From: a virus
DNA length: 64,000 bases
Direction: 5' to 3' (one strand)
IMG/VR virus record: IMGVR_UViG_3300044729_003379
Location: 1-64,000 of that record
A program made the translations under genes and the position numbers. Of the stretch, positions 1 to 43,279 are shown one piece after another (positions within the stretch are counted from its first letter, which is position 1; each line of letters opens with the position of its first letter). The notes beneath the pieces are model-generated. The model was not told where the DNA came from. It made no database searches and saw nothing but the letters and a program-made list of their open reading frames with translations.

Positions 1-19
1 AGCGCGATTGCGTATGGAT

Positions 20-122
20 GCGAAAATCATTCGAACGCCTAAAATAACGTAGGCGCGAAAATCATTCGAACGCCTAAAATAACGTAGGCGCGAAAATCAT
101 TCGAACGCCTAAAATAACGTAG
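20..122. repeat. 35-bp tandem repeat, about 3 copies
   Basis: Unit cgaaaatcattcgaacgcctaaaataacgtaggcg starts at 21, 56 and 91 (third copy truncated); no spacers. Confidence 0.95.
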
Positions 123-145
123 TGACAACGCAAATGGCCTTGCAA

Positions 146-226
146 CGTAAGTCCTTCATTTTCAACGAGTTACAACGGCGGGACCGGGGCGAGCCGTCGT
201 AACTCTTTCATTTTCAACGAGTTACT
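146..226. repeat. Paired 29-bp inverted-repeat sites, copy 1
   Basis: Degenerate copies of cgtaactcgtt-cattttc-aacgagttacg at 146-174 and 198-226, joined by a 23-bp GC-rich linker (acggc...gccgt). Confidence 0.9.
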
Positions 227-383
227 CGTCTTTTAATTGATCAACCGACCTTTGTTCTTCTTTATGGGTATTATGAAGGCGATTGTTTCTACAGTAAGAA
301 CAGGAGCCATTGTTTCGGCAAGTTTTATCGAAACGTTTAGAATCGTATTTTCTAGGATAGTCTTTCTTTTTTGTTCTGCTCAT
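222..383 (-). CDS. Small basic phage protein, 53 aa, CxxxxxCxxC motif (below ORF-track cutoff)
   Basis: Hand translation MSRTKKKDYPRKYDSKRFDKTCRNNGSCSYCRNNRLHN...; upstream TTGCTT-16-TAAAAT promoter. Confidence 0.75.
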   Translation of the reverse strand: MSRTKKKDYPRKYDSKRFDKTCRNNGSCSYCRNNRLHNTHKEEQRSVDQLKDE

Positions 384-433
384 TTTGATTTATTGAAGAT
401 ATTTTAAGCGATTAAAGAAAAGAAGCAAGGGAA

Positions 434-583
434 TTATTCCCCAACAATTTCGACAACCCCGGAAGAGAGGTAGATTGAATTGATTTCAACCTCCTTTCCA
501 TCGATGAGGAGGACAACCTTCGTGTCCTTGCTGGAGTCGGATTCGAAGATGGAAAGGGCGAGTTGGAGTTCTTTGACTGTCAT
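434..583 (-). CDS. Early mini-protein, 49 aa (MTVKELQLAL...)
   Basis: Start moved to ATG at 583, 6 nt after TTGCAT-16-TATACT. Confidence 0.75.
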   Translation of the reverse strand: MTVKELQLALSIFESDSSKDTKVVLLIDGKEVEINSIYLSSGVVEIVGE

Positions 584-630
584 GATGTTAGTATAAGGGT
601 AATTCGATTTAATGCAAGGGTTTTTTTTCG
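584..630 (-). promoter_or_regulatory. Sigma70-type leaderless early promoter with upstream A-tract
   Basis: Minus strand cgaaaaaaaaccc-TTGCAT-16nt-TATACT-aacatc-ATG; same design before ATGs at 1339, 1552, 1764, 2483, 2780, 2992 and 3307. Confidence 0.85.
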
Positions 631-636
631 TGTTTT

Positions 637-732
637 TCAATGACAAACAGCATGGGCGAACCATGCAATGCCAACGATAACAAAACAAGCAACAACAAAA
701 GCAAGGGCAAGATCAAACAGGTCTTTCATCAT
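637..732 (-). CDS. 31-aa single-TM membrane peptide
   Basis: MMKDLFDLALAFVVACFVIVGIAWFAHAVCH; TTGCGC-17-TATCTT promoter 5 nt upstream of ATG. Confidence 0.65.
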   Translation of the reverse strand: MMKDLFDLALAFVVACFVIVGIAWFAHAVCH

Positions 733-861
733 GAACAAAGATAACATAAAAAAAAGAAAGGCGCAAGTAATTATTTCCTTTTCTTTTCCATGATTGCGCC
801 ATGTTCATTTGAACACCCAAAAAAAGTGTTGACATTGGCACGAATCTTGAATTGATTGCGT

Positions 862-1052
862 TGTAACTCGTTCTTTTTCAACGAGTTACGACGGCGCGAC
901 GGGGGCGAGCCGTCGTAACTCGTTCTTTTTCAATGACTTACGAAGGGTTTTTAAACTGTTCATTTGAACACTAAAAGCGGCGTGATGTTCAAATGAACAT
1001 CACACGAAAAAGCGGCATTATATCGCTATATCGCTATATAGCGAAGTATTGA
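862..1052. repeat. About 190-bp non-coding block, copy A
   Basis: Paired 29-bp IRs (862-890, 914-942), two TGTTC-N4-GAACA boxes and TATCGCTA iterons; near-identical to 1969-2167. Confidence 0.92.
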
Positions 1053-1057
1053 CTAAC

Positions 1058-1089
1058 AAAGAGAGAAGGTGAAAACCTTCTCTCTTTTT
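1058..1089. terminator. Intrinsic terminator hairpin, probably bidirectional
   Basis: aaagagagaaggt-gaaa-accttctctctttt, just downstream of CDS 1109-1339. Confidence 0.75.
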
Positions 1090-1108
1090 CCTTTCTTATT
1101 TGCCAGAT

Positions 1109-1339
1109 TTAGCAATGGTTCACTTGTCTTTCAATCCAGTTTTCACAAAACAAATCGATGAAGTCGATATCTTTAATTTCCATAACATATTCCTTTCCTT
1201 TGCGGGAAACTAAAACGTGATCTTGTCCCACAAGATTTTCAAGTGTCCAATACTCGCCAGCAATGTGAAGAGTAATTTCTTCCCCTTTAAGGGTTTGAGC
1301 CATTGCGATTTGAAGGTCTTTTTTGATTTGTTCTTTCAT
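1109..1339 (-). CDS. Early mini-protein, 76 aa
   Basis: ORF with TTGCGC-16-TATACT-6-ATG promoter and a downstream hairpin. Confidence 0.8.
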   Translation of the reverse strand: MKEQIKKDLQIAMAQTLKGEEITLHIAGEYWTLENLVGQDHVLVSRKGKEYVMEIKDIDFIDLFCENWIERQVNHC

Positions 1340-1393
1340 GTTTTAAGTATAAGCGATTAAGAGAAAAGCGCAAGGGTTTTTTTCGTGTTTTTC

Positions 1394-1552
1394 TTAAAGG
1401 GAAAGAATCCATTTGAGAAGAGAACCATCGCAAGAGAAGGAGAAGATCTTTCCTTCGTGCTTCACGCGAAAAAACGAACGCCCCCCAAGCCTTTCATGTT
1501 CAACGTCCATTGCCTTTTTAATCGCCAAGATGTAACCGCTTTCTTCTTTCAT
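1394..1552 (-). CDS. Early mini-protein, 52 aa (MKEESGYILAIKKAMDVEHERLGG...)
   Basis: Hand translation; TTGAAC-16-TAAATT-aacatc-ATG. Confidence 0.75.
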   Translation of the reverse strand: MKEESGYILAIKKAMDVEHERLGGRSFFRVKHEGKIFSFSCDGSLLKWILSL

Positions 1553-1599
1553 GATGTTAATTTACCCTATTTTTGGTTTAGTTCAAGTCTTTTTTTCGA

Positions 1600-1764
1600 T
1601 TATTTCGCTTCGATTTCGTCAACCTGATATTCAAGGGAAAGGCGGATACAGGACCACGAATGGCCGGGAAACATCGCCGCGATTTCTTTCGCGATTTTTT
1701 CCAAATCACCTCCGAATTCGGCAACGAATTTAGCGGCGTCTTCGATTTCTTTGATCATGTTCAT
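1600..1764 (-). CDS. Early mini-protein, 54 aa, duplicated gene copy 1
   Basis: MNMIKEIEDAAKFVAEFGGDLEKIAKEIAAMFPGHSWSCIRLSLEYQVDEIEAK; TTGCGT-16-TATCAT-6-ATG. Confidence 0.85.
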   Translation of the reverse strand: MNMIKEIEDAAKFVAEFGGDLEKIAKEIAAMFPGHSWSCIRLSLEYQVDEIEAK

Positions 1765-1869
1765 GTTGTAATGATACCACTTTAAACCTGATACGCAAGT
1801 TATTTTGTGCTTTTTTTTTCATCAATGTTTCCGCGATTGCGTGATGTTCAATTGAACGCCTTTTTTGTT

Positions 1870-1912
1870 TATCGCTATATCGCGATATATCTATATCGCT
1901 ATATCGCTATAT
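1870..1912. repeat. TATCGCTA-type 8-bp iterons
   Basis: tatcgctatatcgcgatatatctatatcgctatatcgctatat; related arrays at 1019-1044 and 2126-2159. Confidence 0.85.
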
Positions 1913-1968
1913 TGTTTTGCTTTTTAAATGATGTTCAATTGAACACTTTTTTTCTGAGTAGAAATGTC

Positions 1969-2167
1969 CGTAACTCGTTCATTTTCAACGAGTTACGACG
2001 GCGGGACCGGGTTTTTGCGTCATAACTCGTTCATTTTCAACGAGTTACGAAGGGTTTTTAAAGTGTTCATTTGAACACTAAAAGCGGCGTGATGTTCAAA
2101 TGAACATTACATGAAAAAGCGGCATTATATCGCTATATCGCTATATCGCTATATAGCGAAGTATTGA
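1969..2167. repeat. About 200-bp non-coding block, copy B
   Basis: Paired IRs 1969-1997 and 2021-2049, boxes at 2064 and 2093, iterons with one more unit than copy A. Confidence 0.92.
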
Positions 2168-2219
2168 ATAAGCGATTGAGAGAAAAGCGCAAGGGGTTTT
2201 TTTCGATTATTTAAAGGGG

Positions 2220-2239
2220 AGGGAGGCTTTTGCCTCCCT
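2220..2239. terminator. Hairpin or terminator, repeated at 2544-2563
   Basis: agggaggc-tttt-gcctccct immediately downstream of CDS 2247-2483. Confidence 0.65.
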
Positions 2240-2246
2240 TCGCGTT

Positions 2247-2483
2247 TCAGACAAGAGGTTCATTGTTCTTGTTAAGCTTGACAAAGATTTCATCTTGAAA
2301 ATCGCAATCGAGCAATTGGCCCTCTTCAGTTTCAACCACCATCATGGGATAGCCTTGGATATCTTCAATTTCAATTGCCTTGACAATTTCGCCAGTGCCG
2401 ACAATCTGCCAGTTTCCCTCTTCAGAGGGAAAGGGACGAACGAATTGCGTGTAAAGTTTCTTTTCGTAGTATTCTTTGTTCAT
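2247..2483 (-). CDS. Early acidic mini-protein, 78 aa
   Basis: ORF with TTGCGC-16-TATACT-aacatc-ATG. Confidence 0.8.
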   Translation of the reverse strand: MNKEYYEKKLYTQFVRPFPSEEGNWQIVGTGEIVKAIEIEDIQGYPMMVVETEEGQLLDCDFQDEIFVKLNKNNEPLV

Positions 2484-2543
2484 GATGTTAGTATAAAGGA
2501 TTTAAGGGAAAGCGCAAGGGTTTTTTTCGATTATTTAAAGGGG

Positions 2544-2563
2544 AGGGAGGCTTTCGCCTCCCT
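2544..2563. terminator. Hairpin or terminator
   Basis: agggaggc-tttc-gcctccct downstream of CDS 2571-2780. Confidence 0.65.
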
Positions 2564-2570
2564 TTTCTTT

Positions 2571-2780
2571 TCAGACAGCAACGGAATCATTCCACCATAT
2601 AAAACGTTCAACGTCTTTTACAAGAACATCAAACAATTCACCGTCTTCATTCGAGACCGTCAAAACGTCGTCTCTATAAACCTCTTCAAAGAGGTATTGT
2701 TGCCCGTAATGGGTTTGAACAAAAACGTATTCGTTTTTGCTGACACGTTCCGCTTTTTCGATTTGCTCTTTGTTGATCAT
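2571..2780 (-). CDS. Early acidic mini-protein, 69 aa
   Basis: ORF with TTGCCT-16-TATACT-6-ATG. Confidence 0.8.
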   Translation of the reverse strand: MINKEQIEKAERVSKNEYVFVQTHYGQQYLFEEVYRDDVLTVSNEDGELFDVLVKDVERFIWWNDSVAV

Positions 2781-2827
2781 GTTCTAAGTATAAGCGATTA
2801 AAGAGGGAAGGCAAGGGTTTTTTTCGA

Positions 2828-2992
2828 TTATTGCGCCGCCATTTCGTCAACCTGATATTCAAGGGAAAGGCGGATACAGGACCATGAATGGCCGGGAAAC
2901 ATCGCCGCGATTTCTTTCGCGATTTTTTCCAAATCACCTCCGAATTCGGCAACGAATTTAGCGGCGTCTTCGATTTCTTTGATCATGTTCAT
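2828..2992 (-). CDS. Early mini-protein, 54 aa, duplicated gene copy 2
   Basis: Same as 1600-1764 except the last 4 residues (MAAQ); TTGATT-16-TATATT-5-ATG. Confidence 0.85.
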   Translation of the reverse strand: MNMIKEIEDAAKFVAEFGGDLEKIAKEIAAMFPGHSWSCIRLSLEYQVDEMAAQ

Positions 2993-3067
2993 GGGAGAAT
3001 ATACAAGAAGAAAAGGGAGAATCAAGTCTTTTTTTGATTTTCTTTTGACCCTCTAGGCGCTTGCGTT

Positions 3068-3307
3068 TTAGGCAACGCCAAGCGCCAAACGAGCGCGACG
3101 GGCAACAAGCGCCTTCGCGTCTTCAATCGGAAGCAAGACAATTCCCTCACTGGTAAGGGCGGAAATGACCCACTGATAAATGACAACGCCTTCGCCAGCG
3201 GTGCCGTTAGGAACTTGACGCATTGTGGATTTACGGCCCACAAAAGGAATGTCAGAGGTGAAAGGGGCGAAGGTGACAAGGGAGCCAAGGGCAAGGTTTT
3301 CTTTCAT
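3068..3307 (-). CDS. Early mini-protein, 79 aa
   Basis: ORF with TTGTGC-16-TATACT-aacatc-ATG. Confidence 0.8.
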   Translation of the reverse strand: MKENLALGSLVTFAPFTSDIPFVGRKSTMRQVPNGTAGEGVVIYQWVISALTSEGIVLLPIEDAKALVARRARLALGVA

Positions 3308-3614
3308 GATGTTAGTATAACCGATCCCGCGAAAAGCACAAGGGTATTTTCTCTTTTTTTTTCGCGTTTTATTTACGCGGTCGCGTAGTGTTCACATGAA
3401 CACCATAAGGGGGTGGGGTTAATTAAAATCCGACTAGACTAACATAAACCCAAAAAGAGAGGGGGGGTGGGTATTTTTATAAATCCAAACCAATTCCACG
3501 TTATCCAATACCATCCAACACAATTCCAATCCACCCAATTATCTATCCCCTATATATATCCTATCGCATACATTGCGAGACTATATGCGATCACATACAA
3601 AAAAATACCCCTAT

Positions 3615-40622: not shown

Positions 40623-41612
40623 ATGAAAGAAAAGAAGAGGGATTTGTTTGTTGAACGCGCCCATTTTAAACCATTCGATTATCCTGAGTGTGAACAGTTT
40701 TGTGATGCAATTAACGAGTCTTATTGGACGCACAAAGAATGGTCCTTTTCCCAAGATGTTCAACAGTTTCACATAGAACTTGATGATTATCAAAGAGAGA
40801 TTATTAAGAAGTGTCTCCTTCTTATTTCTCAGGTAGAAGTTTCTGTCAAAACTTTTTGGGGCAATCTGTATAGACACGTTCCTCTTCCAGAAATTAACAT
40901 GGTCGGGGCAACATTTTCGGAAAGCGAGGTCCGTCATGAAAGAGCATATTCCCACCTTCTTGAAAAACTGGGCCTCAACGAAGAATTTGAAAAGATTTAC
41001 GATATTCCAGCCGTAATTGACAGACACAATTACTTGAAAAGATACAAAGACTATTCTAACGCCAGATTAGAAGAAAAGTTTCTAAAATCAATCATCCTTT
41101 TTTCTTTATTCATTGAAAACGTGTCCTTGTTTTCTCAGTTCTTCATCATTATGTCTTTTAATAAACACAGAAAGATGTTGAAAGATATCAACAATGCTGT
41201 CGCCGCGACAAGCAAAGAAGAAGCAATTCATGGAGCCTTCGGTAGTTGGTTGATTAACCAAATCAAAGAAGAACACCCCGAATTTTTTACGGACGAACTT
41301 AAATCAATGATTGAAAATTATTGTTTAAAAGCTTTTACCGCTGAAGAAAAGGTTCTTGATTGGATTTTTGATCAAGGAGATTCTGATTTCATTAAAAAAG
41401 ACCAAGTTAAGGAATTTATCAAAAATAGATTAAATTATTCCTTGACAGGAATAGGTCTTAACGCTATATTCGAAGTAGACAAAGAAGTTATCAATAAAAC
41501 AAAGTGGTTTGATGAAGAATTGTTAAGCGATGTTCATGTTGACTTTTTCGACCAAAGACCAACCGCATATTCAAGAAAAAACAAATCAATTACCGCTGAC
41601 GATCTTTTTTGA
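40623..41612 (+). CDS. nrdB: Ribonucleotide reductase beta subunit, class Id-like
   Basis: FKPFDYP, SQVEVSVKTFWG, ESEVRHERAY, ENVSLFSQF, EEAIH, DFF. Confidence 0.92.
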   Translation: MKEKKRDLFVERAHFKPFDYPECEQFCDAINESYWTHKEWSFSQDVQQFHIELDDYQREIIKKCLLLISQVEVSVKTFWGNLYRHVPLPEINMVGATFSESEVRHERAYSHLLEKLGLNEEFEKIYDIPAVIDRHNYLKRYKDYSNARLEEKFLKSIILFSLFIENVSLFSQFFIIMSFNKHRKMLKDINNAVAATSKEEAIHGAFGSWLINQIKEEHPEFFTDELKSMIENYCLKAFTAEEKVLDWIFDQGDSDFIKKDQVKEFIKNRLNYSLTGIGLNAIFEVDKEVINKTKWFDEELLSDVHVDFFDQRPTAYSRKNKSITADDLF

Positions 41613-41632
41613 TTTTTTAGATTTTAATTATT

Positions 41633-43279
41633 ATGAGCAAGATTCAGTGGTTAAACAAACCTGCAAAGATTTTCCTTAAAAATGGATACCTAGAAGAAGA
41701 AGAATCCCCGGAACTAAGGATCGAAGATTTGGTAAAAACTGCTAAAAATATTTTAGGAGATTTTTGGGATGCCGATCAATTTTTGGAAAACATTGAGGCG
41801 GGAGATTATTTGTTTTCGACTCCAGTTTGGGCTAATTTTGGAAGAAAAAGGGGATTGCCGATTTCTTGTTTCAATAGCTATTTAAGCGATACAATGGATT
41901 CAATTCTTTTTAATCTTGCAGAGGTCGCGACAATGACCAAGAATGGAGGTGGAACCAGCGGTTATTTTGGAGAATTACGTCCTCGCGGAGCGGCCATTTC
42001 TTCTGGTGGGAAGTCGGATGGAGTGGTCAATTTCATGAGACTCTTTGATACGGCGATGATAACATGCAAGCAAGCATCTATTCGTCGGGGGGTAATGGGA
42101 TGTTATTTACCGATTGATCACGGAGATATTAATGAATTTTTAAAGATCAAACAAGAAGGAAGCCCAATTCAAGATCTGTTTACCGGAGTTTGCGTTACAG
42201 ACGAATTCATGAAGGGAATGATCGATGGCGACAAAAAGAAAAGAGATGTTTGGGCTAAGGTTTTAAAGAGCAGATCCGAAGTTGGAATGCCCTATATCTT
42301 CTTTACAGACAATGCTAATAAAGGAGCGCCGAAAGTTTATAAAGATAAGGGCAGGAAAATTCATGGAAGCAATGTCTGCTCGGAAATAATGCTTTCTTCC
42401 AACGAAGAAGAATCTTTTGTATGTTGTTTATCTTCAATGAATTTACTCAATTATGATAGATGGAAAGATACAAATGCTGTTGAATTACTGGCGTATTTTT
42501 TGGACGCAGTTTTGACTGAATTTATTAACAAAGCCAAAGACATTCATTTTATGGAAAGGTCTGTAAGGTTCGCGGAAAATCAGAGGGCCATTGGTATTGG
42601 AGCAACGGGTTGGCACTCCCTACTTCAAAGCAAAATGATTGCTTTTGAGTCCCTTGAAGCGCAGATGCTTAATTGTGAGATTTTCGAGACGATGAATAAA
42701 CAGTCTCTTGAGGCTTCCAAAAAGGCGGCAAAACAATTAGGGGAGCCAGAGATGCTGAAAGGGTATGGAGAAAGATGGGCGACTCGTCATGCAGTAGCCC
42801 CAAACACCTCTTCGGCATTTATTTTAGGTCAAGGATCGCAATCTATTGAGCCGTTCAAGTCGAATTATTATGTAAAGGATTTGGCCAAATTTAAATACAC
42901 ATTTAAAAACCCTTATCTAGAAAAAGTCCTAGAAGAAAAAGGACTTAATATAGACGAAACTTGGGACTCAATTCTCCTTAAGAATGGATCGGTTCAACAC
43001 CTCCCCTTCTTGTCTCAACATGAAAAAGATGTTTTTAGGACATTTACAGAAATTGGCGCGAAGGAAACCGTAATCCAAGCAGCGCAAAGACAGAAGTATA
43101 TTGATCAGGGACAAAGCTTGAATCTTATGATCCCCCCCGATACGACGACTAAAGATATCAATTCCCTCATTATTTTTGCTTGGGAGAGCGGAATTAAGAG
43201 TTTATATTATCAACACAGCACAAATGCGGCACAAGCTTTCTACAGAAAGCTAAACGAGTGTAGTAATTGTGAAGGGTAA
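41633..43279 (+). CDS. nrdA: Ribonucleotide reductase alpha subunit, short, no ATP cone
   Basis: PISCF, GGGTS, SNVCSEI, APNTSS, DQGQSLN, KSLYY, C-terminal CxxC. Confidence 0.93.
   Translation: MSKIQWLNKPAKIFLKNGYLEEEESPELRIEDLVKTAKNILGDFWDADQFLENIEAGDYLFSTPVWANFGRKRGLPISCFNSYLSDTMDSILFNLAEVATMTKNGGGTSGYFGELRPRGAAISSGGKSDGVVNFMRLFDTAMITCKQASIRRGVMGCYLPIDHGDINEFLKIKQEGSPIQDLFTGVCVTDEFMKGMIDGDKKKRDVWAKVLKSRSEVGMPYIFFTDNANKGAPKVYKDKGRKIHGSNVCSEIMLSSNEEESFVCCLSSMNLLNYDRWKDTNAVELLAYFLDAVLTEFINKAKDIHFMERSVRFAENQRAIGIGATGWHSLLQSKMIAFESLEAQMLNCEIFETMNKQSLEASKKAAKQLGEPEMLKGYGERWATRHAVAPNTSSAFILGQGSQSIEPFKSNYYVKDLAKFKYTFKNPYLEKVLEEKGLNIDETWDSILLKNGSVQHLPFLSQHEKDVFRTFTEIGAKETVIQAAQRQKYIDQGQSLNLMIPPDTTTKDINSLIIFAWESGIKSLYYQHSTNAAQAFYRKLNECSNCEG

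Follow-up and report, generated by a model that had tools for sequence, protein, structure and literature searches.

A conserved palindrome upstream of leaderless early promoters in a lake-water phage family, probably a protein-binding control site

The early region of the phage represented by IMG/VR virus record IMGVR_UViG_3300044729_003379 contains eight copies of the palindrome TGTTCA-NN-TGAAC(A), which are probably protein-binding control sites situated upstream of early promoters in a family of lake-water phages. The record, referred to as G000, is linear, has a length of 73,726 nucleotides (nt), a GC content of 34.7% and a CheckV completeness of 51%; the window analyzed here comprises its first 64 kb. 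The phage was found solely in lake-water sequencing runs. Judged from sequence and position, the palindrome is a predicted operator element common to the lake lineages of the family. For the window itself, the favored reading, held with modest confidence, is that the palindromes are binding sites of a dimeric sequence-specific protein and together make up the regions that control three early promoters from upstream. A first-pass annotation, based on the letters of the window, had described the copies as LexA-type boxes that serve as an SOS sensor or as a decoy for host LexA. The palindrome is a clear cis-element, and there is no evidence for a LexA sponge.

Palindromes and early promoters

Bases 1-3400 of the window encode about ten small genes of 31-79 amino acids (aa), all on the minus strand. 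Each possesses its own sigma70-type promoter, TTGCnn-N16-TAtAcT, with an ATG 5-8 nt past the -10 box, and it is this short distance that marks the early mRNAs as leaderless; intrinsic terminators are located between several of the units. Because the early region of the close kin described below measures ~14 kb, the window contains just the first 3.4 kb of it. A search of the window for TGTTCANNTGAAC retrieved eight sites, at 802, 957, 986, 1845, 1932, 2064, 2093 and 3389 (15 strand-wise matches), and all eight copies of GTTCA-NN-TGAAC or TGTTCA-NN-TGAAC fall within 802-3402. This clustering, already reported in the first-pass annotation, was confirmed by a chance expectation of 0.06 and by 100 shuffles, none of which equalled the observed count. 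The absence of copies elsewhere had been judged by eye and holds for exact matches over the whole record: GTTCA-NN-TGAAC occurs only between 803 and 3390, the remaining 70 kb contain none, and allowing one mismatch adds just two sites there. Seven of the eight copies are exact instances of TGTTC-N4-GAACA, while the copy at 1845 ends in G and not in A. The promoters and palindromes are as follows, with distances counted from transcription starts that were inferred from the promoter hexamers.

729-766, minus strand: early promoter TTGCGC-N17-TATCTT, leaderless ATG at 732 or 729, small membrane-type open reading frame (ORF)
1764-1798, minus strand: early promoter TTGCGT-N16-TATCAT, leaderless ATG at 1764, 54-aa gene that is duplicated at 2828-2992
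3307-3341, minus strand: early promoter TTGTGC-N16-TATACT, leaderless (ATG 6 nt past the -10 box), 79-aa gene at 3068-3307
802-815: palindrome TGTTCATTTGAACA, closest site of early promoter 738-766, centre at about -78
957-970: palindrome belonging to the distal pair of duplicated block copy 1
982-1003: palindrome 986-999 widened to a 22-bp perfect dyad that looks like a terminator, since a T-run follows it on the minus strand
1845-1858: palindrome with G as last base, closest site of early promoter 1771-1798, centre at about -88
1932-1945: palindrome, distal site (about -175) of promoter 1771-1798
2064-2077: palindrome belonging to the distal pair of duplicated block copy 2
2093-2106: palindrome, partner of the copy at 2064 in the distal pair of block copy 2, 29 bp away from it
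3389-3402: palindrome, closest site of the first early promoter 3314-3341, centre at about -88

The palindrome-bearing promoters (738-766, 1771-1798 and 3314-3341) are those that open gene blocks, and their upstream regions hold three, four and one palindromes, respectively. The nearest centres are placed at -77.5, -87.5 and -88.5, and further copies are found 55-185 bp beyond the nearest ones, where they flank a hairpin module and iterons. In agreement with the earlier count of three copies located 35-50 bp upstream of a -35 box, gaps of 35, 46 and 47 nt separate the nearest copies from the boxes at 761-766, 1793-1798 and 3336-3341. The other five copies had been assigned to duplicated blocks that lack promoters; they do flank a duplicated block with iterons, but they are not free-standing and lie upstream of the same early promoters.

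A TerL search of viral contigs provided 214 relatives, and more were obtained by scanning for paired palindromes and for GCGATTGCG-N3-palindrome arrangements. Among annotated phages, no match to the early region DNA was found, and the window TerL is merely 22-28% identical to those of such phages. The close kin L004/L097, L093, G004, G008 and G010 share a TerL of ~88-90% identity and a common layout. In five close relatives, the hexamers of the first early promoter, GCGATTGCG and the palindrome are kept while the downstream gene has been exchanged; the palindrome at 3389-3402 and its adjoining GCG-N3-GCG element (3378-3386) are likewise kept in five relatives. The nearest palindromes of G004 and G010 are centred at -88.5 and -89.5, and second sites follow at about -141 to -145. 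At ~50% protein identity, G002 and G009 contain 23 and 17 palindromes, mostly centred at -89.5 to -91.5, and almost all gaps in front of early genes are occupied by one. G001 (complete, 179 kb) is a distant relative within the family and has a TerL of 37% identity, portal, PhoH and sigma-like genes in common and syntenic replication genes. It carries 50 exact palindromes, all in its first 40 kb, and its promoters have the form TTGACA-N16-TATAGT with a leaderless ATG; the commonest palindrome centre, -66.5 or -67.5, is observed at ~16 of 33 promoter signatures. Palindromes precede promoters all along 12-30 kb of the early region in both G001 and G002. Leaderless sigma70-type promoter signatures amount to 17, 35, 25 and 77 in the whole records of G000, G004, G002 and G001, compared to 0-3 in shuffled sequences; their spacer is mostly 16 nt, and in the window they extend over 583-3341 on the minus strand.

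Across the three lineages the 14-bp core does not change, whereas its flanks and central dinucleotide do; such a pattern suggests that a protein reads the sequence, and not simply that a hairpin can form. The lineage-specific positions, ~-67 versus ~-88/-90, are 22 bp apart, equal to two helical turns, and the number of copies in G002, G009 and G001 follows the number of early promoters. The constant core, the fixed distance within a lineage, the conservation independent of the downstream gene and a copy number that tracks the promoters argue for a cis-regulatory protein-binding site and not for a free decoy. The TerL tree unites the window clade with G009 in one palindrome-bearing clade (99/96), which is sister to a marine clade, whereas G001 stands apart on a long branch with palindrome-free lineages between it and the window clade. 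The marine relatives (TerL ~60% identical) lack the palindrome, with 0.21 near-matches per 10 kb, and keep the hairpin modules. A separate observation concerns the ribonucleotide reductase alpha gene of the window (40623-43279) and its upstream neighbor, a beta subunit judging from position and size: the two are 78% and 73% identical to their G001 counterparts, compared to only 37% for TerL.

Neighboring elements of the early region

The palindromes are accompanied by further elements, which are listed here and described below.

863-942: hairpin module GTAACTCGTT-N7-AACGAGTTAC with a GC-rich hairpin and a second hairpin; also at 146-225 and 1970-2049
1019-1045: ATATCGCT iterons, with more sets at 1868-1915 and 2126-2157
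1833-1841: second upstream element GCGATTGCG, 3 nt left of palindrome 1845-1858; also at 4-12, with variants at 793-799 and 3378-3386
2165-2192, minus strand: promoter-like TTGCGC-N16-TATTCA with no ORF behind it, from which transcription would enter the iterons and the paired palindromes of block copy 2

A block of 180 nt is duplicated at 863-1042 and 1970-2149 with 91% identity. It contains, in this order, the hairpin module, a palindrome pair spaced by 29 bp and the ATATCGCT iterons, and five palindrome copies flank it. About three hairpin modules are present per early region, and their conservation at the nucleotide level spans the family and includes marine relatives (TerL 59% identical), with copies in L058 (480-570, 1556-1640) and L067 (1055-1135, 2610-2770, 3735-3815). 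The module is predicted to fold into one long or several short hairpins that are very stable on either strand (z ~-7). Immediately upstream of it there is often a TTGACA box, which has the opposite strand orientation to the early genes. Iterons vary in sequence even among close relatives, whereas the palindrome is constant.

The second upstream element, GCGATTGCG or GCGGTCGCG, is located 3 nt to the left (plus strand) of all three promoter-nearest palindromes and reads CGCAATCGC(GCCAT) in the direction of transcription. In G004 it occurs at 1745, 3156, 3239, 4026, 7389, 7723, 8473, 8518, 9185 and 10056, and seven early promoters, some of them without a palindrome, have the CGCAATCGC element ahead of their -35 box, at a distance of 23-26 or 35-37 nt. 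Its form in G002 consists of the quasi-dyads ACGCGATTGCGT and ACGTGATCACGT. At the contig start (20-124), three tandem 35-bp units come right after a GCGATTGCG element.

The ORF-less promoter-like element at 2165-2192 may yield a short non-coding RNA, as an extended palindrome hairpin and a U-run are found downstream. The first hairpin module of the marine relatives is followed by ~330-450 nt of conserved non-coding sequence (L058 1640-2100, L067 1140-1460), which may be a structured RNA; the L067 stretch has no Rfam match. An Rfam scan of the early region of the window gave no match either, and no tRNAs were found in the window. Finally, a 182-nt duplication (1584-1765 and 2812-2993, 96% identical) holds the 54-aa acidic early gene, for which a weak, sub-threshold winged-helix match was obtained.

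Reader protein, host and competing explanations

A winged-helix protein of the LexA type is the most likely reader of the palindromes. One protein of G001, 159 aa long, has a LexA_DNA_bind domain, which scores 28.9 bits and thus exceeds the cut-off, and has no peptidase; in this phage the reader is likely the phage-encoded LexA-type protein. An exhaustive HMMER search with the G001 protein returned mostly short proteins that comprise only the DNA-binding domain (DBD) and a few full-length LexA proteins, with ~40% identity over the domain, and the full-length relatives are named Chthoniobacterales, Opitutales or Verrucomicrobiota by their sources; a word-based homologue search with the DBD produced a self-match only. 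The first-pass annotation had stated that the window contains no repressor or integrase, and this statement stands, as the G000 record, ~51% complete, holds no match to Phage_integrase, HTH_3, Peptidase_S24 or LexA_DNA_bind. It had also proposed that a phage-encoded cognate binder would speak against its LexA interpretation: such a binder is likely in G001, but none was found in the partial records of the window lineage. The far ends of G000 and G004 do not join. For the window lineage, a phage protein encoded in the unsequenced half of the genome is a plausible reader, if at less than even chance, and a phage-encoded LexA-type reader is possible; a host protein, LexA or another, is considered only slightly less likely.

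Among the small early proteins, the 79-aa protein is the best conserved. It is modeled as a small beta sheet with one helix (predicted local distance difference test score, pLDDT, 88.6, with just one of five models being confident). A Foldseek comparison with the PDB gave no match at E <= 0.001, no homologue is present in G001 or G002, and nothing marks the protein as a DNA binder. A ParB/parS system was considered and dropped because none of the conserved proteins tested contains a ParB-like domain.

If the palindromes are operators, the bound protein would touch or trap RNA polymerase from upstream, or it would loop the nearest to the distal sites; the paired and distal copies would permit cooperative or looped binding. 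Early transcription could be timed in this way, either by shut-off through an early phage product or by coupling to a host regulator. Several points weigh against such an operator. LexA-type domains are absent from G000, G002, G004, G008, G009 and G010 (all partial records) according to Pfam and a custom hidden Markov model, and ten small early proteins gave nothing above threshold in Pfam and PHROGs. Only three of the ~10 early promoters in the window carry a site, and five of the eight copies are more than 150 bp away from a promoter. The promoters are already near consensus, so that activation is perhaps not needed, while sites so far upstream are unusual for simple repression. The nearby hairpins and iterons would also fit a role in replication or at the RNA level, and the starts from which all distances are counted derive from hexamers.

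The proposal of host LexA as the reader originates from TGTTC-N4-GAACA, which is said to have been described by Erill and colleagues in 2016 as the LexA consensus for Verrucomicrobia (Verrucomicrobium spinosum). In the literature searched, no paper was found that quotes the palindrome motif. The designation as LexA-type boxes holds in so far as seven of the eight copies match this consensus exactly and one has a single mismatch, but the sites are not placed at the core promoter. According to this explanation, which is possible but unproven and judged unlikely, early transcription would be tied to the SOS state of the host and its rate would change upon LexA cleavage. Besides the motif itself, it can draw on G001, which pairs the palindrome with a LexA-type DBD whose nearest full-length relatives are annotated as verrucomicrobial LexA proteins, on the occurrence of the motif on two separated branches of the TerL tree, fitting something shared from outside the phage lineage, and on the partial records of the window lineage, in which no phage reader was found. 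It is opposed by the positions of the sites: LexA operators would overlap or abut the core promoter, whereas the nearest palindromes of the lineages are found at -67 to -90 and the others beyond, and classical LexA repression is not supported.

The verrucomicrobial premise was examined with 78 metagenome loci that encode an Opitutales-type LexA and represent one lineage. The lexA promoter of these loci is conserved and contains a tandem pair of TGAAC-N4-GTTCA dyads, located at -31 and -16 relative to the ATG, which correspond to the pentamers of the phage in reverse half-site order. TGTTC-N4-GAACA is present in none of 38 distinct lexA upstream regions and nowhere in 347 kb of these loci; when up to two mismatches were allowed in seven representative upstream regions, one two-mismatch match and none better was obtained. 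The GC content of the loci averages 62%, compared to 35-41% for the phages (35% for the window phage). The recognition helices of the compared LexA proteins and of the G001 protein differ, which weakens the case for host LexA and at the same time means that the Opitutales-type result does not fix the binding sequence of the G001 protein. As a side observation, L124-L195 represent an abundant verrucomicrobial lineage from lakes, Opitutales according to the source names, with a nearly leaderless lexA, in which TTGACA and then the tandem dyads are found ~40 nt upstream of the gene; their TGAAC-N4-GTTCA follows the Gram-positive-type order.

Metagenome-assembled genome bins that contain family members were classified as Flavobacteriaceae (two contigs in one bin), Flavobacterium, Cellvibrionales and an unnamed bacterium, and the lineages binned with Flavobacteriaceae bracket the window clade on the TerL tree. 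Canonical LexA is missing from Bacteroidetes, whose SOS operators have unrelated sequences (PMC8565304); this also argues against host LexA. The early promoters follow the canonical sigma70 pattern and not that of Bacteroidetes. Shine-Dalgarno motifs precede few genes throughout (5/69 in the phage, 34/226 in G001, 46/277 in the marine relatives and 33/208 in the verrucomicrobial loci) and therefore do not discriminate between candidate hosts. In addition, an 80-kb element of Acinetobacter schindleri NIPH 900 (L089 11840-12140) contains repeated TGAACA-N3-TGTTCA-N2-TGAACA units that surround and overlap a TTGACA promoter ahead of an ASCH-domain gene; here the palindrome acts as an operator of the promoter, in the form of three half-sites that overlap it. 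As this gammaproteobacterial element is unrelated, the dyad is not diagnostic of Verrucomicrobia. The verrucomicrobial host that had been deduced from the motif is not supported, given the opposite-order operators, the difference in GC content, the Flavobacteriaceae bins and the Acinetobacter element with the same palindrome. A broader scenario, in which the lake-phage family recruits a host global regulator, LexA or a dimer of the same specificity, to a constant position upstream of dozens of leaderless early promoters and G001 later captured the DBD so as to take over the circuit, is regarded as quite unlikely. In this scenario the physiological state of the host would govern the first minutes of infection.

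The remaining explanations carry less weight. The decoy originally suggested, an array that titrates host LexA off chromosomal operators and thereby switches on SOS functions, is extremely unlikely. The copies are clustered, five of eight are not beside a -35 box and phage DNA replication would multiply them, but all of them reside within promoter upstream regions and not independently of promoters, most copies in G001, G002 and G009 keep a fixed distance to an early promoter, and the site is conserved together with its promoter despite gene replacement. Eight sites per genome are few for titration, the premises of host and LexA are themselves unproven, and the DBD of G001 would occupy the sites of its own genome; the sites are thus not supported as a decoy. 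Another host transcription factor, such as a Crp/Fnr-type dimer that boosts the early promoters as a class I activator from ~-67 or -88, is distinctly unlikely. The 6-N2-6 geometry and the shift by two turns would resemble class I activator sites, for which CRP positions of -61.5, -71.5 and -82.5 are known; early promoters must fire before any phage protein exists, and the motif is missing from the marine relatives. On the other hand, the -35 and -10 boxes hardly call for a booster, no candidate factor was found, and 401 Bacteroidota genomes contain 0-4 palindromes each, near background, so that no regulon-sized set exists there.

A replication origin or partition site composed of palindromes, hairpin modules and iterons is very unlikely. 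Iterons, long inverted repeats and palindromes are indeed clustered and duplicated, and the structures are very stable on both strands. Nevertheless, an iteron origin would be expected next to an initiator gene, and neither an initiator-like protein nor a ParB-like gene is encoded nearby; the iterons vary even between close relatives while the palindrome does not, and the spread of the palindromes over many kilobases of promoters in G001 and G002 does not suit an origin. Hardly any probability is assigned to a role of the palindromes at the RNA level, where they would serve as hairpins for termination or processing between early units. The copies at 986 and 2093 extend to stems of 9-11 bp followed by a U-run on the minus strand, and the ORF-less promoter at 2165-2192 reads into copies. 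However, the 14-bp core alone would form a 6-bp stem with a 2-nt loop, the sequence itself is conserved without compensatory changes, and the nearest copies precede promoters, in gaps between units already provided with intrinsic terminators. In favor of the upstream operator, the same dyad occupies a fixed upstream position of leaderless early promoters, as in G001.

Comparison with known systems

If one far-upstream dyad does control banks of leaderless early promoters, it would offer a testable handle on the timing of early genes in abundant uncultured lake phages. The reader, once found, would give a clue to the host, and the system would show an operator and a DNA-binding domain moving between host and phage. 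A close likeness is the array of G001, which belongs to the same phage family and shares the 14-bp core, the leaderless sigma70-type early promoters and the fixed upstream position. It differs by its 50 copies, compared to eight in the partial G000 record, and by its position at -67 instead of -88, while the window has the second element CGCAATCGC beside the palindrome and no LexA-type gene in the available sequence. The LexA box reported for Verrucomicrobia is a 14-bp dyad identical to seven of the eight copies; the phage sites differ from it in being located far upstream of the core promoter, and the single verrucomicrobial lexA promoter family that was read has the opposite half-site order. 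The G001 gene for a LexA DBD alone can be compared to gp6 of the tectivirus GIL01, a truncated LexA homologue. Regulators that contact RNA polymerase from behind, such as CRP at class I promoters and p4 of phi29, usually sit well upstream of an intact -35 box. In phi29, the p4 sites have their centres at about -82 (promoter A3) and -71 (A2c). The likeness is that p4, a regulator made by the phage, recognizes an inverted repeat far ahead of the promoter and operates an early/late switch through contact with RNA polymerase; its sequence and protein are unrelated to those of the present family, and it uses few sites instead of one per promoter across an early-gene bank. The MotA boxes of T4 middle promoters are likewise short, phage-specific elements, and they recur at the same place in numerous promoters that belong to a single temporal class. 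They replace the -35 element and are not dyads, whereas the element described here is a dyad located 30-50 bp upstream of an intact -35 box.

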